Below are positions 53,779-63,212 of a DNA stretch of 64,000 nt, piece by piece. The stretch lies in the NCBI GenBank assembly GCA_036841525.1, contig DAITVZ010000006.1, positions 5,749 to 69,748 of the forward strand. The letters are read 5' to 3'. This stretch comes from Chloroflexota bacterium. GTDB lineage: Bacteria > Chloroflexota > Anaerolineae > JAAYEA01. Every line of letters begins with the position of its first letter. Position 1 is the stretch's first letter. The position numbers and the translations under genes are program-made. The notes beneath the pieces are model-generated. The model made no database searches. It was not told where the DNA came from and was given only the letters and a program-made list of their open reading frames with translations.

Positions 53779-56700
53779 CTAGTTCGCGCCAATGGCCTGC
53801 AGTCGCTCCGCAGCGCGATCTTCCCAGTCAGTGCCAACGCCGATCTGCATGGCCTGGGTATAGGCCCTGCGCGCGCCGGTGCGGTCCCCCTGACTCTCCA
53901 GGGCTGTACCCAGATGGAAGAAGGACTCGGCGAACCCCGGATCGGCCTGGGTTGCCCGCTCAAAAGCTTGTGCTGCCTCGCCCCAGTGCTGCCGCTCCAG
54001 GTAGGCCATCCCCAGCTTGTTGAGCGCGGCGGGGTTATCAGGGGCCACCGCCACCGCCCTGGCATACTGGGCCAGGGCTTGTTCGAGATCGCCCATCAGA
54101 GCGTATGTATCGCCCAAGGTGTGATACATGGCAACGTCCTCGGGGTGCAGCTCGAGCGACGCCTCGAAAACGCGCGCAGCATCCTCTGGTCGCCCCAACT
54201 GACGGTAGCGATCGCCCAGCTCGAACTGCAGGCCGGCATTTCCCGGGTCAGCCTTGGCGGCGCGCTCCAGGGTCTTGAGCGCATCCCTGCTGATGCTGCT
54301 CTCTGCCCTCGGCGCCACCGTCGGGATGGCAACGGCTTGGGCTGCACCGGACACGTAACCGGCGAACTCGCGCCTGACCTGATCGAGCACGCGATAGATG
54401 CGGACGGTATCCTCATCGTAGACCAGCGCCAGGTACTCGCTCATCGCATCGAACTTGGCGAGGCTGGCCTCAGAGTAGACCGATCTTTCGAATGGCCCCA
54501 CGTACACATAGGAGACGCCGTACTTGGCCAGGAGGCGCGCCGTTTCCTCCGCGTCCATCGAGCGGTACATCTGCTCTGCGTCGCGGTGGCGGGGCCCGAT
54601 CAGCTCGTCGTAGCGCTGTTCGTTTTCGTGCAGCGGGTTGAGCACAGTGGGCAAGCCGGTGTTCACGGCGATCCGCACACCATTCTCGCGATAGTAGCCG
54701 TAAGGGGCCTGCAGAATGATCGGCGTGCCCTCGAGGTTATCGATCAACCACTTGATGGCCTTCAGATCGGGCTCCAGGTAGATCTGGTGCCCATCCCAAT
54801 TGTACGTTGCGGTCTCCATGTAGGCCAGCCCATCGAGGGTGCCCCAAGCAGGCGGGGCCGGGAATCGGTCACGCCAGCGACTCTGAATCGCCACCAGTGG
54901 ATAGGCCGCCGCCAAGAGCAGCAAGCCGCCCAGGATCACCTTCCATATGGCGCCCAAGGCATGTCGCCGCACCCACCAGGACCGAAGCAGAACGCCAAGA
55001 CAGGCCGCCGCCGAGAGGGCAAGAAGCACCCAGGCCTGGATATAGAACTTGAAGATCGTGTTCATCCGATACCAAGTATCACCCAGGTGGTCCCGGATAT
55101 AGATGACTTCCACGCCAATGGAGATCAGCAGGCCAGCCAGGCCGAGCCATAGCGCGAATCGCTCCGGCAGGATAAGGTCGGCGCGCCCCATGGCCGCCAG
55201 CGATAGCAGGATAAGCTCCGCGATGCTCCAGAGCGTCAGCAACTGCCGCCAGTTGACATCAGGATACAGAAGCTGTGCTATGCCAAGAAGCAGCGGGAGC
55301 AGCGCCAGGCTCACAAGAAACACCCACTTGCTGGACAGCCAGGCCAGCAGGCGCGACCTGGCCGTGGCCTCTGGGGCCTTGGCCGGCGCCGCCGCAACAG
55401 CAGCAGAAGGCACCTCGTCGCCGAGCAATAGGCTGGGGACAGGCTCGGCCAAGGCCAGCACGTCCGGCACTTCCGCAGCCAGCGCGTCCAGGTCGAGGAC
55501 CAGCGGGCTCGGTGTGGCGTCCGGCAGCGGAGCATCCCGAGGACCGTCCTCGGCGCTTGTGGAAGCCACCGAAACCTCTGCCGAGAAGCTGCGAGCGGTG
55601 GCCCTCCGCCCGGCGACGCGCCAGACGACATAGGTAGCCAGGACAAACAGGAACAGGCCAAAGAAGGACCAGTAGTAATTGAACTCGGTGGGATAGCGAA
55701 CGAGTCCTATCCCCTTGATGAAGGCCTGGAAGTGGGTGAAGAAGGGGAAGAACAGCGCCAGGCCAAGGCCTGCCAATGCCAGGGCGCCAACGGTGGCGGC
55801 CAGGATCGTCCTCACCTTCCGTCGCCACCCAGCGGGCTGATCATCACCATCGCGAGGGGCGTGCGCCAGCAGCAGCGCCCCAAACGCCACCAGCGCGAAC
55901 GCCGGGAAATCCCACGAGTTCGTGACAGCCAGCGTGCCGAGCACCAAAGCCGCCAAGAAGCCGACCAACCACGGCGCCGCCCGGAGACGTTCCTGGGTAT
56001 GGCCCTCGGTCTCTGTTACCTGGCGAACCCCCTGGGCGATGCGCAGGGCAAGGGCGATGGACAGGATGGTGAACGGGATATTGATGGTATGCGGGTGAAG
56101 ATCCGCGAACAAAAAGCTCCAGAAGGGGAATTCGGTGATGGTGTTCTCATAGAATCCATGGGACCGAGAGGCGTCCCAAAACCAGTCGGTGCGCAGGGGC
56201 AGAGTGGCAGGCCCGAGCCATCTCCAGAAGCCTTGCCAGAGCCGAGCCAAGGCGCCGGACGTGTCCGGGTCCGCCAGCTGCTGGAGCGCCGACACGACCT
56301 CGCCAAAGCCGCCACGTCCGCGGACCGGGAACGCTCCGCTGAGAGGGCCCACCCAGACCACCAAGAAGCCAGCCACGACGCCAAAGAGCTTGCGGCCGGT
56401 CAGCGTAGCCACAACAGAAAAGCATCCTGACACGGTGAGGGCGAACAGGGTAGCAATGATCAGGTTGAAGGCGACTCCTGGCATAAGCCCGGACAGCTTG
56501 ACCAGGGTAGACACTGCGAATAGCCCATAGTAGTAATAGTTGATGTATCCGCCGGAGAAGAAGGGGTCAAGAGGCGGCATGGTGGAGCTGCGGAGAATGG
56601 CATTTAGGAAGCCAAACTCCATGGGCTTTTCTCCGCCGTTCACCGGGTGCCAGATATCCGGATTGCCAAGCCGCAGCAACAACCCTGCCGCGAAGGCGGC

Positions 56701-59106
56701 TAGAAAGACCAGCTCGAAGGCCAGCAGTCGGCGATGCTCCCGCCAGAAAGCTGTCACGCTGAGCCGCCGCTTGCGCAGTAGCAGATAGGAAAGGAATGCA
56801 ACTGCGGCGATCGCTCCCCACACGGCCCAGACGGTGTAGTTCCAGAGTCCCAGGCTCACCGGCATCCAGACGAGGTAGGAAACCAGCACCAGGCCAAGGG
56901 CCTTGGTGAGCAGATAGCCCCTATCAAGGAAGGTTGAAAAGACAGCGCTCGTCACCGGCCAGGCTACTAAGGAGACAAGGGCCAGGCCGAGAAGCCAGAC
57001 CACGATTGCGAGCGGGGTGCTCGAGCTGGCTACGCGGTTCCAGCCATAGTCAGAGACGGCTGGCAGGGCTTCCACTGGCACGTCCAGCATCAGTGGCTTC
57101 TGATATTGGGGCACGGGCAACACCACTGGCGCATCGGACCCCATGCGTGTGACCGCAGGCGCGGCGTTGAGGACATCGCCAAAGAGCCCGCGGATCTCCT
57201 GCTCGGGCAAGTCGCGGACCTTCTGGTAGATGAGCACCTTGGGATGATCATAGACGCTGAAACTCTCGTCGGCGGCATCGTCCACGAACGTCAGTCCCCA
57301 GATGGAAGGGTAGGACATGGCCGTGTGCGCGAGCTCGAAGCCCAGACGCTCGGTGAAGAGCAGCTCATAGTACTTGAGCTCCACGGGGTACCGCCAGGGC
57401 AGCCGCCGGATGGCCCCATACAGCCGCGGGGTAGCCAGCACGATATAGTCGGATCGCTGCATGGTCTGAATCAGATGCTGAAGCTTGGCCTCTGGGGCCA
57501 TGTCGTGATAGATGTCAAAGGTCACGTTGCCGGCCAGCCTGGACCGATTGAACCCTTCGAGGGCCAGGTCCACCGGCAGGGCGTCATCCCAAGCTTCCGC
57601 GCTCACCGTGGAGCCACGCGGGGCATTGGCGTATAGCCACCGAGAAGCGTCGTGCCAGGTGTGCGGCTTGGCATAGATGCTCATGAAAGCCAGCGCCCAG
57701 ACCAGCGTCGGGAGCAGGATGGCCACTACCGTGAGGGTGCTCACCACCCGCGAGAACCGCTCCGCTACGCTCGGGCTCACTTGCCGATCGGCCGTCAGGT
57801 GCGCCTGGACCCAGGGACGTGCCGCCAGATCGCGCCCCCAGCGGCCAAGGAGCCTCGCGACGCCGAGCACCAGCCAGGCCCCCAGGACGCACAGCGCTGG
57901 GACCAGCGGCAGCATGTACCGCATGAACTTGACCTCGTACCGGCCCACCACGGCCAAGTAGGGGAGTACCCAGCCAAGGAGCACCGCCATGCCACGCAGC
58001 CGATCGTCATAATACAGGGCGTGCATGGCGCGATGCCACCAGTTAAGGCCGCCTGCGCCACGCGGCCGAAGGAGTGTCCATACGATCAAAGCAGCTGCCG
58101 CTATCACGCCCGCAAAGGCAGCGATTCCCAGCGGCCAGCCCAGCCCCCAGCGCCCGAGGTTGCCCAGGTGGTACAGGTAGGGAAGGGTGTTGATATACTG
58201 GCGGGTGAATGGCCAGTCGTTCGCGCCGCTGACCATCTCGGATTGGTTCGCGAGGGCGGCGAGATACGTCTGGGGGTCAAGGAAGACATAGAACTCAAAG
58301 ACACCGTAGATCAACAGGGCGCCCAAGAGAACCAGAAAGACATAGCGGAGCCCGTGCAGCCAGGGTCGGCGCACCCTCTTGGCGGCGGGACCCAGGGCCC
58401 AGAGCAGCAGGGAGACGACAACCGCTGCAAGGGTGGTTGCTCCGCTGACCTTGCAGGCCATAGCCCCGCCCAGCGACAGCCCGAGGAGAAGCGCGTTGCG
58501 CCAACCGCCGCGGCGCGCCAAGCGCAGCCCCCAGCACAGGGCGCCGGTGGCGAACATGGCCAAGGCCAGATCAACGGTCATAAAGTGGCTGAGCTGTATG
58601 TGCGTGACGCTGAAAGCCAGGAAGGCGGCGCCAAGCAATCCCGCGCCGGGGCCAAAGAGCGCCGCGCCGATGGCGTATGCCAGCACAACCGTGATCAGGG
58701 CAAAGACAACCGTCACGGCGCGCCCGACGACAAAGTAACCATCGTAGGTGTCGAACTGTGGGTAGCCAAGCCAGCGCAGCGCCGCAGTCGTGGCGCGGTA
58801 GATGTAGATCGGGAGGGTGCCGTACGCGAGGTCGTAATGACCGCCGTCGGCCGGATTGATGCGACGAGGGTTCAGCGTGCTGACGTCGGGGTCGGCCAGG
58901 TTGCGCCAGTCGGGCGGCCAGGGCAGGGAGATGCGTCCCATCGTATTGGCCAGGTGGCGCTCGTCGGGATGGGGATATGCCCCGAAGTCGGCGTCCCACC
59001 CCAGGCCATAGATGCGCAGGGCGCCAGCGCACAGCAGGATGATCGCCAATGCCACAAACGCCAGGTTGCGGCGCCAAGTTGGGCCCAGTCGGTCTTGCAG
59101 CGACAC
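53779..59106 (-). CDS. Large membrane protein: GT39-like N-terminal module + DUF2298/Chlor_Arch_YYY domain + TPR repeats
   Basis: HPDERH GT-C motif; GGEKPMEFG, DPFFSGGYINYYYYG, TITEFPFWSFLFADLHPH, LDGLAYM; C-terminal TPR helices; GTG start with GGAGG RBS. Confidence 0.88.
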   Translation of the reverse strand: MSLQDRLGPTWRRNLAFVALAIILLCAGALRIYGLGWDADFGAYPHPDERHLANTMGRISLPWPPDWRNLADPDVSTLNPRRINPADGGHYDLAYGTLPIYIYRATTAALRWLGYPQFDTYDGYFVVGRAVTVVFALITVVLAYAIGAALFGPGAGLLGAAFLAFSVTHIQLSHFMTVDLALAMFATGALCWGLRLARRGGWRNALLLGLSLGGAMACKVSGATTLAAVVVSLLLWALGPAAKRVRRPWLHGLRYVFLVLLGALLIYGVFEFYVFLDPQTYLAALANQSEMVSGANDWPFTRQYINTLPYLYHLGNLGRWGLGWPLGIAAFAGVIAAAALIVWTLLRPRGAGGLNWWHRAMHALYYDDRLRGMAVLLGWVLPYLAVVGRYEVKFMRYMLPLVPALCVLGAWLVLGVARLLGRWGRDLAARPWVQAHLTADRQVSPSVAERFSRVVSTLTVVAILLPTLVWALAFMSIYAKPHTWHDASRWLYANAPRGSTVSAEAWDDALPVDLALEGFNRSRLAGNVTFDIYHDMAPEAKLQHLIQTMQRSDYIVLATPRLYGAIRRLPWRYPVELKYYELLFTERLGFELAHTAMSYPSIWGLTFVDDAADESFSVYDHPKVLIYQKVRDLPEQEIRGLFGDVLNAAPAVTRMGSDAPVVLPVPQYQKPLMLDVPVEALPAVSDYGWNRVASSSTPLAIVVWLLGLALVSLVAWPVTSAVFSTFLDRGYLLTKALGLVLVSYLVWMPVSLGLWNYTVWAVWGAIAAVAFLSYLLLRKRRLSVTAFWREHRRLLAFELVFLAAFAAGLLLRLGNPDIWHPVNGGEKPMEFGFLNAILRSSTMPPLDPFFSGGYINYYYYGLFAVSTLVKLSGLMPGVAFNLIIATLFALTVSGCFSVVATLTGRKLFGVVAGFLVVWVGPLSGAFPVRGRGGFGEVVSALQQLADPDTSGALARLWQGFWRWLGPATLPLRTDWFWDASRSHGFYENTITEFPFWSFLFADLHPHTINIPFTILSIALALRIAQGVRQVTETEGHTQERLRAAPWLVGFLAALVLGTLAVTNSWDFPAFALVAFGALLLAHAPRDGDDQPAGWRRKVRTILAATVGALALAGLGLALFFPFFTHFQAFIKGIGLVRYPTEFNYYWSFFGLFLFVLATYVVWRVAGRRATARSFSAEVSVASTSAEDGPRDAPLPDATPSPLVLDLDALAAEVPDVLALAEPVPSLLLGDEVPSAAVAAAPAKAPEATARSRLLAWLSSKWVFLVSLALLPLLLGIAQLLYPDVNWRQLLTLWSIAELILLSLAAMGRADLILPERFALWLGLAGLLISIGVEVIYIRDHLGDTWYRMNTIFKFYIQAWVLLALSAAACLGVLLRSWWVRRHALGAIWKVILGGLLLLAAAYPLVAIQSRWRDRFPAPPAWGTLDGLAYMETATYNWDGHQIYLEPDLKAIKWLIDNLEGTPIILQAPYGYYRENGVRIAVNTGLPTVLNPLHENEQRYDELIGPRHRDAEQMYRSMDAEETARLLAKYGVSYVYVGPFERSVYSEASLAKFDAMSEYLALVYDEDTVRIYRVLDQVRREFAGYVSGAAQAVAIPTVAPRAESSISRDALKTLERAAKADPGNAGLQFELGDRYRQLGRPEDAARVFEASLELHPEDVAMYHTLGDTYALMGDLEQALAQYARAVAVAPDNPAALNKLGMAYLERQHWGEAAQAFERATQADPGFAESFFHLGTALESQGDRTGARRAYTQAMQIGVGTDWEDRAAERLQAIGAN

Positions 59107-59141
59107 GGAGCAACCTCCAGCGGCCATAGTGCAACAGGGCT

Positions 59142-59169: not shown

Positions 59170-59206
59170 AAAGCAAAGAGCCCACTGGCGACCCAGCAGG
59201 CCCTTT
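59167..59206 (-). terminator. Intrinsic terminator of ssrA
   Basis: 14-bp stem (with G-U pairs) AAAGGGCCTGCTGG-GTCG-CCAGTGGGCTCTTT followed by GCTTTTT. Confidence 0.8.
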
Positions 59207-59219
59207 ACTTTACATAACA

Positions 59220-59663
59220 TGGAGATGGCGGGAATCGAACCCGCGTCCAAAGAGTTCGCCCGCAAGCTTCTACAAGCTTAGCTGGTCTGTTGTTTCTCGC
59301 CCAACGACCACCCGTCCAGCAAGGATGTCATTAGGCCAGCCGATGATCTTGAGCCTCCTTATCGACATGGGGAAGCAGCACCCCGACTTTTATTACGCCC
59401 AGGGCTTGTCCCATCGGGGTGGGGGCAAGGTGGACGTGACCGCGGTTAGGCGGTCAGGGCCAGGAATGCGCTAGGACCGCTTACGCAGCGCCGGCTGGGG
59501 ATGCGCAAGGCACCCCTGCCCAAGGCTGCTTAGGCAGCCATCGCGTATTCGTAGGCCGGGAGTTTGGCTGTTTTGCCAGTTATTGTTTGCCCCATTTTAC
59601 GAGAGCGAGGCGCCTCGGCTTGCAGCTCACGGACAGCCGTCCCTGTCGAAACCTGTCATCCCC
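59220..59663 (-). ncRNA. ssrA: tmRNA (444 nt); tag GKTAKLPAYEYAMAA* at 59577-59530; CCA not encoded
   Basis: 5' GGGGATG pairs with 3' CATCTCC-A, including the G3-U wobble; T-arm GCGGG-TTCGATT-CCCGC; UAACU before the resume codon; GGCTGC-CTAA-GCAGCC stop hairpin; pk1-pk4 pairings traceable; directly downstream of smpB. Confidence 0.96.
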
Positions 59664-59731: not shown

Positions 59732-59760
59732 ACTGTACCACAGATCACGTCGCGCGTCAA
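59732..59760 (-). promoter_or_regulatory. Putative sigma70 promoter of ssrA
   Basis: TTGACG-17 bp-TACAGT with TGn. Confidence 0.6.
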
Positions 59761-59778: not shown

Positions 59779-60243
59779 TCAGTAATCCTGCTCTTTCAGC
59801 GCGCGCTGGATGGAACGGTCCGCTTCCTTCTGCGCCAGCGCCTCTCGCTTGTCATAGAGTTTCTTGCCGCGAACCACGGCGATCTCCACCTTGGCCAGGT
59901 TGTTGAGCAAGTACATCCGCAACGGGACAATGGTGATGCCCTTCTCCTTGACCTGACTGTGCAGGCGCAGGATCTCTCGTCGATGCAGCAAGAGCTTGCG
60001 ATCCTGGCGCGGGTCGTGGTTGGCGCGGTTCCCCTGGTCATAGGGCGCGATGTGCACGTTGACCATCCAGGCCTCGCCGTTGCGGAAGGTGACATAGCCA
60101 TCCTTGAGGTTGACGCGGCCGGCGCGAACCGACTTGATCTCCGTCCCGGTCAGCACCAAGCCGGCCTCGAGCTTGTCATCCACGAAATAGTCGTGATAGG
60201 CTTTGCGGTTTACCGCGACGTCTCTTACCTTGTCGTCTTTCAT
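59779..60243 (-). CDS. smpB: SsrA-binding protein
   Basis: NRKAYHDY, EAGLVLTGTEIKS, RKLLLHRREI, RGKKLYDKRE. Confidence 0.98.
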   Translation of the reverse strand: MKDDKVRDVAVNRKAYHDYFVDDKLEAGLVLTGTEIKSVRAGRVNLKDGYVTFRNGEAWMVNVHIAPYDQGNRANHDPRQDRKLLLHRREILRLHSQVKEKGITIVPLRMYLLNNLAKVEIAVVRGKKLYDKREALAQKEADRSIQRALKEQDY

Positions 60244-61481
60244 CGCGCCTGCTTCTCAAGGAGATACTCGATCGCGCGCTGCAGTTGCGCGTCCTGGTCA
60301 GAGAGCACGGCGGAGGGATCCATCTCGACCAGGATGTCCGGCTCCAATCCCTCGCCATCGATCCCACGGCCATTCGGCGTGTACCAGCGCGCGATGGTCA
60401 GCACCAAAGAGGAGCCATCGCTCAGAGCGTAGGGTATCTGCATAGACCCTTTGCCGAAGGTGGTCGAGCCAATCAGCGTCCCACGCTGGCGATCCTGGAC
60501 AGCCCCCGCCACGATCTCGGAGGCGCTAGCGCTGCCCTCGTTTACCAGGACCACCAGCGGGATCTCGGTGGCGATCCCGCCGCCCCGTGCGGTATACTCG
60601 ACGCCCTCATCGCCCAGGCTCTTTCGCTCTATCAGCACGAGCCCCCGATCCAGGAACTCGCTGGCGATATCCACCGCCGCCGAGAGCAAGCCTCCTGGGT
60701 TGTTCCGCAGGTCGAGGATCAGGCCAGTTGGGCGCTGCTTTATCAGATCGGCGAGCGCCTCGTGCACCTGATCGCTCGCCTGGGCGTTGAACTCGTTGAG
60801 CCGCAGGTATCCCGGCCCCTCCGGCAAGACCCTGTACTCCACCGTGGCAAAGTCGAGCTTGGCGCGCACGATGGTGACCTCGAACTCGCTCGCCTCGTCC
60901 TCGGCCAGCCGCCGGACAAGCAGGCGAACAGAGGTACCCTCAGGGCCGCGGATCAGCGCCACCGCCTGGAGCACGCCGAGCCCCTCGAGCGGGCGGCCGT
61001 CCGCCTCCAAGATAATGTCGCCAGCGCGGATTCCGGCTTGCTCCGCGGGGCTGTTCGGCAGCGGCGCCACCACGGTCAAGAAGCCATCGACATTGTTCAC
61101 CGACGCGCCAATGCCCTCAAAACTGCCGCTGAGGTCCTCTTCCAGGACAGCGGCCGCTGCTGGGTCGACCCAAACCGTATGGTCGTCGCCCAGGGAGTCC
61201 ACCGTGCCACGGATCGCCCCGTAGATCATCTCTTGCTGATCGAGCGGCGCCTCGGTGTAAAAGCTCTCCTCGATGCGGTGCCAGGCCTCCCAGTACACGC
61301 GGAAGCTCTGCTCGAGCTCCTCGGAGACCTCCCCAACGGGGTACTGGACATCCGGGCGGCTGAACCAGGATACGCCATAACCCGCCAGAAAGGTGCCCGT
61401 CAGGAGCGCACCCGACAGTGTCGCCATCGCCAGCAGCCGAAGTAGTGGCTGCGCCTTCTGGTCTCCACTCTTGTTCGTCAT
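60240..61481 (-). CDS. ctpA: S41 carboxyl-terminal processing protease (PDZ), membrane-anchored
   Basis: FEGIG PDZ, DLRNNPGG, ASASEI, TFGKG; ATGA overlaps on both sides. Confidence 0.92.
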   Translation of the reverse strand: MTNKSGDQKAQPLLRLLAMATLSGALLTGTFLAGYGVSWFSRPDVQYPVGEVSEELEQSFRVYWEAWHRIEESFYTEAPLDQQEMIYGAIRGTVDSLGDDHTVWVDPAAAAVLEEDLSGSFEGIGASVNNVDGFLTVVAPLPNSPAEQAGIRAGDIILEADGRPLEGLGVLQAVALIRGPEGTSVRLLVRRLAEDEASEFEVTIVRAKLDFATVEYRVLPEGPGYLRLNEFNAQASDQVHEALADLIKQRPTGLILDLRNNPGGLLSAAVDIASEFLDRGLVLIERKSLGDEGVEYTARGGGIATEIPLVVLVNEGSASASEIVAGAVQDRQRGTLIGSTTFGKGSMQIPYALSDGSSLVLTIARWYTPNGRGIDGEGLEPDILVEMDPSAVLSDQDAQLQRAIEYLLEKQAR

Positions 61482-62809
61482 CTGTCACCCTCGGATTGCT
61501 CGGCCAGATACTGCAACGCCCGATCCAACTGCGGGTCGTTCCCTGCCTGCATGTCTTCCGTTGTCCGCGGCACCAGGATGTCCGGATCAAGCCCCAGGCC
61601 ATTGATCGGTCGCCGGTGCGGCGTCAGCCAGTGGGCGGCGGTCACGTGCAGGCTCGAGCCATCGCTGAGCTCGTGAACGTATTGCATGGAACCCTTGCCA
61701 TAGGTCTTTTCGCCGATTAGGACGCCCCGCGCATAGTCCTGGATCGCGCCGGCGACAATCTCGGCCGCGCTGGCGGTTCCCTCATCCACGAGGACCACCA
61801 AGCGCCCCTCGGCGTACGACGTAGCCGCGTCGGGAATCATATAGGCTTGCTCAACCAACTCGCCGTCCTCCCCGCGTCGCCTTTCGTAGAGCAGCACGCC
61901 CTCCGGGAGCAGCTTGCTGGCCACCTCACCGGAGGCGCTCAGCAAGCCGCCACGGTTCCCTCGCAAGTCCAGGACAATCTCCGAAATCCCCTGCTCGCGA
62001 ATCTCGGCCAGGGCGCCAGCCAGCTCGTCACCCGTGGGCTCGGCAAAGAAAGTCAGCTGCACGTAACCAACCTGGCCATCCTGCAAGGGTTCCCAGGTGA
62101 CCGTGATCTGCTTGATCTCGGCGCGAACCACTGGCACGAGTAGCAGGTCCTCCTGGTCCTGGCGCTGGATGCCAAGGGTCACCGTGGTCCCCACGGGCCC
62201 GCGAATGAGCAACACCACCTCGTCCTGTGACAGGCCATCCACCGCGACGCCGTCCACCTGCGCGATGATGTCTCCGGCGCGCAGGCCTGCCCCTTCCGCC
62301 GGCTGGCCCGGCATGATCGCCGAGATGAACGGCTGTCCTTCCTCGGTCATGCCGACATAGGCGCCGATGCCGCCAAAGCTGCCCTCGTATCCGCTCTTGT
62401 CTAGCTCGGCCTGGGGCGGCTCGACAAAAGAGGTGTGTGGATCACCCAGCGTGCCGACAAGCCCGCGAATGGCGCCATAGGCGGCCGCCTGGTAATCCAG
62501 GGCCTGCTCGGAGTAGAAATCGCGCTGGATCAGCTCCCATGCCTCGGAAAAGGGCTGCAAGCGCGAGCCCGGAGTTGCCTGTTCATCGGCGGCGCCACTC
62601 TCCGCTTGCGCGGAAGCGTCACCTCGCGCGGGATCCGCAGCCTGTGCATCGGGCGGTGGGGTAGGGGGGCGCACTTCGCTCACCCCAGGGGCAGATGGGC
62701 GAAGCGATCTCCCGTACCAACCGATTCCCAAGCCTGCAAGAAACGATGCGCCGCTCAAGCACAGGGCGCCAAACACCGCCGCAACAAGCCAAACAGACGA
62801 TTTCCGCAT
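61478..62809 (-). CDS. ctpA: S41 carboxyl-terminal processing protease (PDZ), membrane-anchored, second paralogue
   Basis: FGGIG PDZ, DLRGNRGG, ASAAEI, TYGKG; N-terminal TM plus Pro/Ala linker. Confidence 0.92.
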   Translation of the reverse strand: MRKSSVWLVAAVFGALCLSGASFLAGLGIGWYGRSLRPSAPGVSEVRPPTPPPDAQAADPARGDASAQAESGAADEQATPGSRLQPFSEAWELIQRDFYSEQALDYQAAAYGAIRGLVGTLGDPHTSFVEPPQAELDKSGYEGSFGGIGAYVGMTEEGQPFISAIMPGQPAEGAGLRAGDIIAQVDGVAVDGLSQDEVVLLIRGPVGTTVTLGIQRQDQEDLLLVPVVRAEIKQITVTWEPLQDGQVGYVQLTFFAEPTGDELAGALAEIREQGISEIVLDLRGNRGGLLSASGEVASKLLPEGVLLYERRRGEDGELVEQAYMIPDAATSYAEGRLVVLVDEGTASAAEIVAGAIQDYARGVLIGEKTYGKGSMQYVHELSDGSSLHVTAAHWLTPHRRPINGLGLDPDILVPRTTEDMQAGNDPQLDRALQYLAEQSEGDR

Positions 62810-63150
62810 GAGAGAGGGCCTTCCGCTTATGTTAAACGATTGCCGATTATTGACATAATCGCTAGGCATGTTAACTATTGCTATTCTAGCACATATCGGG
62901 GACAGAACCAAAAGCCTGCGCCTCCGGCCAGGGCCGGTCACATCCCAGTGGCCGAGGTGGAGCACAGGACGGCCAGGCCGTGCTCCGAACAGGGTCACCA
63001 CAACGAATCGAGACGGGTGTGCGCGAGCCAACCAAGGAGCGATGCGTCGACTGCGCGCGCGGGTTCGGCCAGTCACATGCTCGGTGCTACGTGGGCTTGA
63101 GCACGCGGCCACAAGACAACCAGCGATCGGAGAAGCCTGTTTGGGGGGGC

Positions 63151-63179
63151 TTGACACCCGGACAAGGTTATGGTATAAT
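63151..63179 (+). promoter_or_regulatory. Perfect-consensus sigma70 promoter of the recombinase gene
   Basis: TTGACA (63151-63156), 17 bp, TATAAT (63174-63179), with TGn extension. Confidence 0.85.
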
Positions 63180-63212
63180 ACTTCGCATAATGTCACTTAT
63201 ACGAAGTATTAT
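63175..63212. other. dif/loxP-like recombination site (16-bp arms, 6-bp core)
   Basis: ATAATACTTCGCATAA-TGTCAC-TTATACGAAGTATTAT; the arms are 15/16 complementary; lies 45 bp upstream of a tyrosine recombinase. Confidence 0.8.

Follow-up and report, generated by a model that had tools for sequence, protein, structure and literature searches.

An Anaerolineae tmRNA with three helix-5-like hairpins and a lineage-specific segment of about 49 nt between its tag and pk2

A 64,000-nt stretch of DNA from a Chloroflexota bacterium of the class Anaerolineae (hereafter, the window) carries a tmRNA gene (ssrA) with two hairpins between its stop hairpin and pk2 that again hold TAA in the loop. The question is whether the additional sequence encodes something or is RNA that folds and is left untranslated. 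The first-pass annotation, made from the sequence alone, had read it either as back-up or alternative degradation tags or as a tandem duplication of the end of the tag. The 444-nt gene and all coordinates and peptides given there proved correct by ARAGORN, Rfam, translation and folding, and both further TAA-loop hairpins are present, the nearer TAA in the +1 frame and the farther one in the frame of the tag. Its interpretation held in part: the evidence supports a tandem duplication of the tag-end module but not back-up degrons or alternative tags.

Judged from its sequence, the window gene has all of the testable defining features of a standard tmRNA. The covariance model RF00023 of Rfam matched it over model positions 1-374 with 173.9 bits (threshold 47, E 1.4e-70). 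In the tRNA-Ala-like domain, the 5' GGGGAUG pairs with CAUCUCC-A in an acceptor stem with G3.U; the T arm (GGGTTCGATTCCC) lies at 59244-59228. At the level of the alignment, the Rfam model placed all four pseudoknots, pk1-pk4, which are kept in relatives. A two-piece (permuted) tmRNA was rejected because the match is colinear with the model. An intron-containing tmRNA was also rejected, as the T arm is uninterrupted, the 49-nt insert lies between tag and pk2, and Rfam reported RF00023 alone. The features of the locus are collected in Table 1.

Table 1 Features of the ssrA locus, with positions in the window
Feature	Position	Strand	Description	Basis
smpB	59779-60243	-	154 aa, partner protein, 115 nt upstream of ssrA	ORF; PF01668
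Promoter-like site	59732-59760	-	TTGACG-17-TACAGT (with TG), sigma-70-like, upstream of ssrA	consensus scan only
ssrA (tmRNA)	59220-59663	-	444 nt, standard one-piece, CCA not encoded	ARAGORN and Rfam RF00023
Tag frame	59530-59577	-	resume GGC (59577-59575) to TAA (59532-59530); GKTAKLPAYEYAMAA and stop, 15 residues	translation
Module 1	59524-59539	-	functional stop hairpin GGCTGC-CTAA-GCAGCC, helix 5-like, stop in loop	folds; conserved in all relatives
Lineage-specific extra segment	59475-59523	-	about 49 nt	not in any of the 14 nearer relatives examined; shared with sister species L053
Apical hairpin of insert	59493-59520	-	GGC-A-GGGGTGC / GCA-T-CCCC-A-GCC	fold -16.6 kcal/mol
Module 2	59476-59489	-	most likely a decayed stop-hairpin copy, GCTGC-GTAA-GCGGT; TAA 59483-59481, +1 frame	self-alignment versus shuffles
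Linker	59457-59475	-	CCTAGCGCATTCCTGGCCC, orthologous to the post-stop-hairpin linker of relatives (CTAGCG motif)	alignment with L005 (ATCTAGCGCAATTGTAGGCCC) and others
Module 3	59437-59456	-	pre-pk2 hairpin TGACCGC-CTAACC-GCGGTCA; TAA 59448-59446	class-wide; Rfam helix 5 aligned here
pk2	59381-59436	-		Rfam alignment; conserved in relatives
Terminator-like hairpin and T run	59178-59194	-	downstream of ssrA	consensus scan only

Among 401 sampled genomes of the class, 349 had a tmRNA. The best-scoring 150 of these 349 ranged from 347 to 435 nt, and the window gene was the longest when compared with them; other very long tmRNAs of the class owe their length to tags of 20-24 aa. The mRNA-like stretch from pk1 to pk2 spans 152 nt in the window, and a survey of 2005 gave 48-126 nt for this region (PMC1168896). 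One relative genome held two tmRNA genes of identical score (G006:C6:27609-27990 and G006:C32:16742-17123), which could be a true duplication or redundant MAG contigs.

The surroundings of the gene are also shared with relatives. The order S41 peptidase, S41 peptidase, smpB, ssrA (window 59779-63196) is kept down to 71% SmpB identity (loci L043-L053, L061, L079 and L080), with one peptidase only on the shorter contigs, and the second S41 peptidase gene overlaps smpB by 4 nt. Directly 3' of ssrA lies a gene for a 1,782-aa membrane protein with PMT_2, DUF2298 and TPR domains (window 53779-59127, minus strand), the start site of which varies by annotation, giving 1,775 or 1,782 aa in other assemblies of the same organism.

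The tag has a non-polar terminus (..AMAA), and its resume codon was validated by comparison with relatives. One relative (L061) has an identical tag, and two others have near-identical ones (L007, GNTAKLPAYEFAMAA; L005, GNTAKLPAYQFAMAA). Gly resume codons are known from 30 sequences, and the helix 5 loop is a known site of stop codons (PMC1168896). Overall, tags are most often 10 aa long (PMC11915505). In this class, many tmRNAs carry unusually long ones of 20-24 residues that have a core in common, such as ANTGKAFNFAPRFAAAPAMALAA and AKNTGKAFNFPRLAAQPAMAIAA (loci L016, L020, L023, L028, L065-L071 and L073-L078), and the conserved (A/T)FNF(A/V)PR block in these long tags suggests a second recognition element.

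The tag called by ARAGORN for the window, AVTSTLPPPRWDKPWA followed by two stops, is wrong, and ARAGORN also called a wrong tag for L005 and L031. Several long-form Anaerolineae tmRNAs that score 160-177 bits with Rfam were missed by ARAGORN altogether; the loci at which it had problems are window 59220-59663, L005, L010, L017, L018, L034, L042 and L064. ARAGORN seems to be misled by the extra helix-5-like hairpins. The Rfam model in turn puts helix 5 on module 1 in L007 and on module 3 in the window. Tags in this class need comparative checking.

In the window, 87 nt (59523-59437) separate the stop hairpin and pk2, and the first-pass annotation had taken all of them as an insertion. The 87 nt do lie there, but they are an excess only relative to E. 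coli. The distance from stop to pk2 is 96 nt in the window, and among the 14 nearer relatives examined it is 46-51 nt; since the relatives already have this much, only about 49 nt are lineage-specific. Where this insert begins and ends is ambiguous because it is, most likely, itself a duplication (see below). In relatives of the same tag family (399-421 nt), the interval comprises the 3' arm of the stop hairpin, a short linker or hairpin with CTAGCG, and a 7-8-bp hairpin abutting pk2.

The distribution of the insert was profiled in the tmRNAs of 40 genomes belonging to this class, together with a tag-pattern scan of genome contigs and look-ups of SmpB and CtpA homologues. Its carriers were the window species, a strain variant (SmpB 99% identical) and one sister species (L053), the SmpB and CtpA of which are 91% and 82% identical to those of the window; the tmRNA of L053 is 446 nt long and has an insert of the same length. 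The relative with the identical tag peptide (L061, SmpB 71%) is without the insert, as are L079 and L080. The tag-pattern scan of genomes found 11 relatives, none of them with the insert, the SmpB and CtpA homologue searches for more carriers gave the one sister species only, and a metagenome pattern scan for further carriers returned only an L005-type gene. A second copy of the 48-nt insert was sought in the 5.2-Mb genome and none was found, blastn giving the insert itself and chance matches of at most 23 nt. A miniature mobile repeat (MITE- or REP-like) was thus ruled out, the insert being single-copy in the genome.

The genome is a MAG, and duplicated segments can be assembly errors, so a chimeric join or a collapsed repeat within ssrA is a reading to be weighed. 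We regard its probability as negligible. In ENA, NCBI and JGI assemblies, the contigs with an identical SmpB all have an identical 444-nt ssrA, at least eight of them being independent; they come from different samples, assemblers and archives, and truncated Logan and ENA contigs match the gene as far as they extend. The strain variant keeps the insert, the diverged L053 has one of the same length, and modules 1 and 2 have diverged from each other and are not exact repeats.

The hairpin next to pk2 (module 3) had likewise been counted as part of the insertion; it is instead a class-wide covarying element. Of 28 class members, 24 form it with a stem of 7-8 bp; pairs 3, 4, 6 and 8 covary, and the loops are variable. 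In the short tmRNAs of the class (349-359 nt, GEPQLALAA being one of their tags), the only helix 5 abuts pk2, and this helix matches the pre-pk2 hairpin of the long forms, as seen in L015 (gccCTGGCTGCC-TAGa-GCAGCCAcg) versus L005 (gccCTGGCTGCT-cgaaat-AGCGGCCAcg). On the strength of this match to the single ALAA-stop helix 5 of the short forms, module 3 is probably a fossil of an ancestral tag end. If so, the stop hairpin in use would be an upstream copy or a replacement, and the CTG ACC GCC TAA of the window (LTA and stop) would be a remnant, not a designed back-up.

Module 2 has its TAA 49 nt past the first one, and L053 keeps the module as GCTGC-CTAA-GCGGT. Its sequence, GCTGCGTAAGCGGTCCTAGCGCA, resembles the tag end plus linker, GCTGCCTAAGCAGCCTTGGGCA, at a spacing of 49 nt (18 of 23 positions identical), and this self-similarity exceeds that of dinucleotide shuffles (p 0.038 and 0.009). 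The tag end and linker of L005, too, are matched best by module 2 with its linker. The loop of module 2 reads TAA and not TTA, so the copy would be direct and not inverted. The 49-nt insert, consisting of module 2 and the apical hairpin, is most likely a decayed and imperfect tandem duplication of the tag end. The statistics for duplication are modest (p 0.01-0.04) and the similarity could be partly convergent, since hairpins made of Ala-Ala-stop codons resemble one another in any case.

Shortly after the stop hairpin (window 59473-59470) comes a CTAG(C/G)G motif that is kept across the PAYxYAxAA tag family. Its TAG lies in differing frames, and the motif is thus kept as RNA and not as a stop.

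If the region past the first stop were translated, read-through of the first UAA in the window would add AALGRGALRIPSRRCVSGPSAFLALTA, ending AFLALTA (AFVALIA in L053) at the TAA of module 3, which lies 84 nt past the first stop and in frame with the tag. A +1 slip would end at the TAA of module 2 with ASPAGAA (ASPAIAA in L053). Either route would yield a non-polar, degron-like tail and could serve as back-up for termination or degradation. The pre-pk2 TAA is in frame in both species, and module 2, read in its own frame, ends with PAGAA in the window and with PAIAA in L053. Tandem in-frame stops are moreover a known feature of tmRNA, found in 85 sequences (PMC1168896). The wider comparison nevertheless makes this back-up role very unlikely. 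Stop triplets occur in the pre-pk2 loop of about one third of the relatives, in frame 0, 1 or 2, and between the near-identical L037 and L038 a 1-nt indel shifts the frame of this stop. The in-frame state of one downstream TAA has a prior of one third, which is no more than chance, and in the window it would be a by-product of insert length, as the fossil stop is out of frame without the 49 nt. The LTA and LIA endings also differ from the canonical AA terminus, and UAA is the most efficient of the stop codons.

Comparison of the window with L053 gave the same picture. Their read-through peptides are identical at 16 of 31 residues and differ at 15, with 3 synonymous versus 15 non-synonymous codon changes. 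The differences fall on the three codon positions as 11/7/6, 7/6/11 and 6/11/7 in the three frames, and none of the three reading frames past the first stop had a significant excess of third-position or synonymous changes. Relatives conserve neither the loop stops nor their frames, which is largely the finding that the first-pass annotation had named as speaking against such tags, and no coding signature reached significance. There is therefore no support for back-up or alternative tags. We explain the PAGAA and PAIAA endings, and the fact that both species retain TAA in the loops of modules 2 and 3, by recency and structure, although a coding model would predict the same.

GCA is the usual Ala resume codon, and the resume site ACUGGCAAA can be read at GGC, giving the 15-aa tag, or one base later at GCA, giving 31 residues (AKQPNSRPTNTRWLPKQPWAGVPCASPAGAA). 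In a dual-frame tag of this kind, the second tag would end at the TAA of module 2 and the insert would supply a second degron. The +1 frame is open from GCA to this TAA in both species, and it is the highest of the three frames in third-position differences (7/6/11) and in synonymous codons (7). Its last eight codons (ASPA-G/I-AA and stop) differ by four third-position synonymous changes and one replaced codon, and the part upstream of them diverges freely, as tmRNA tags do. If true, this would be a natural choice of frame on tmRNA, with new degrons arising through duplication of the tag end.

We consider both parts of this reading, the two resume frames and the second degron, highly improbable. 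The third-position excess (11 of 24) is not significant, at roughly p 0.1-0.2 before choosing among three frames, and the synonymous-looking changes run on past the stop of module 2. Of the four synonymous changes, two also restore or create pairs of the apical hairpin, and another falls in a hairpin loop. The GCC resume codon of relatives aligns with GGC and not with GCA, the tag conserved across the family is that of frame 0, and 16 open codons are expected by chance in GC-rich sequence. To our knowledge, no natural tmRNA has two resume frames.

The substitutions are distributed very unevenly along the RNA. Between the window and L053, the 5' part including the whole tag differs at 1 of 139 positions, the apical hairpin region at 17 of 35 (49% divergence), the stretch from module 2 to module 3 at 7 of 53, and the rest of the RNA at 17 of 219. 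Despite its divergence, the apical counterpart in L053 folds at the same place (-16.1 kcal/mol). At paired sites, one change from T-A to C-G is compensatory, and one from G.T to A-T preserves pairing. Random substitution at equal density kept the apical stability in 1-4% of simulations (p 0.01-0.04). An apical hairpin that differs at 17 of 35 positions and still folds indicates a constraint on structure and not on sequence. Only two species carry the insert, and its covariation thus comes from a single pairwise comparison.

The stop hairpin is nearly palindromic, so the arms of module 1 are able to pair with those of module 2. One long irregular helix is the minimum free energy (MFE) fold of the isolated 66-nt segment in both species. 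When the surrounding region is included, L053 prefers the long helix (-46.7 versus -40.8 kcal/mol), and in the window this helix and three separate hairpins are equally stable; over the whole region, the window has its MFE in a third fold (-52.8 kcal/mol) and not in the long helix. The folding z-scores in the window (-0.9 and -1.5) are not significant.

These data bear on the reading that the insert is a functional structural extension, with the long helix selected as a platform for a protein, as a brake on unwinding by the ribosome at termination, or as an RNase III-type processing site; the last variant would yield a two-piece tmRNA, as happens with rRNA intervening sequences. Retention of apical folding beyond random expectation at 49% divergence and the long helix as the isolated MFE in both species fit such a role, and in E. 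coli the pairing of helix 5 and its contact with pk2 matter for tagging (PMC1168896). Set against this, the insert occurs in two species only and L061, a close relative with the identical tag, does without it; its sequence is unconstrained, without conserved loop motifs or a significant z-score in the window, and selection against misfolding alone explains the same data. We therefore hold a selected function of the helix to be unlikely.

The explanation that we consider likely is that of an ordinary tmRNA that stops at the first UAA, in which the 49 nt are an untranslated, foldable expansion segment that arose by duplication of the tag end and lies beside an older fossil. Three helix-5-like modules would then stand in series between tag and pk2, made by local duplication. 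Module 3, the counterpart in position and sequence of the ALAA-stop helix 5 of the short forms, would be an untranslated structural hairpin in all long-form relatives, and module 1 would be the stop hairpin now in use, where translation ends. Module 2 and the apical hairpin would be a young insertion from the common ancestor of the window species and L053. As an RNA expansion segment, the insert may drift almost freely in sequence as long as its folding is kept. It could form one long irregular helix with module 1, the stop codon lying in an internal loop, or three adjacent hairpins, and the ribosome would have to open up this structure when tagging ends, as it opens helix 5.

The presence of three stop-hairpin modules of differing age in one RNA suggests that tag ends and helix 5 may evolve by local duplication, the upstream copy taking over termination and the old copy staying as a structural hairpin beside pk2. 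In the limited literature searched, no description of duplicated tag-end modules or of helix 5 modules in series was found. The idea offers a small and testable account of changes in tag length and sequence, and leaves the understanding of trans-translation unaltered.

In comparison with known systems, the gene is like the one-piece tmRNA of the E. coli type (RF00023) in its G3.U domain, pk1, resume codon, stop in a loop and pk2-pk4, with smpB adjacent. It is unlike the E. coli RNA (363 nt) in its length of 444 nt and in having three helix-5-like hairpins in series, not one. With the long-form Anaerolineae tmRNAs (399-435 nt; L005, L007, L061, L032 and others) it shares the tag family ..PAYxYAxAA, the stop hairpin, the pseudoknots, the CTAGCG linker and the covarying pre-pk2 hairpin, and it differs from them in the 49-nt segment with the apical hairpin and second stop-hairpin module. 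As in tmRNAs with tandem stops (UAA UAA in the helix 5 loop; PMC1168896), more than one stop lies downstream of the tag; the stops are adjacent and in frame there, whereas in the window the next in-frame stop follows only after 28 codons (84 nt), the stop before it being out of frame.

Anaerolineae tmRNAs are known to vary greatly in length and to have introns (PMC11915505). Group I introns occur in the tmRNA T-loop, one subsite being specific to Anaerolineae, and the intron-form genes are at least 545 bp long (PMC11915505). Like them, the window gene is a tmRNA gene of this class that contains an insertion, but the inserted segment is 49 nt long, is located in the mRNA-like region and had no intron match in Rfam. 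By analogy only, as a different RNA is concerned, the insert may be likened to the expansion segments and intervening sequences of rRNA, in which a lineage-specific helix sits at a tolerant site, drifts fast and retains its folding. The window locus is a small structural variant of the standard tmRNA.
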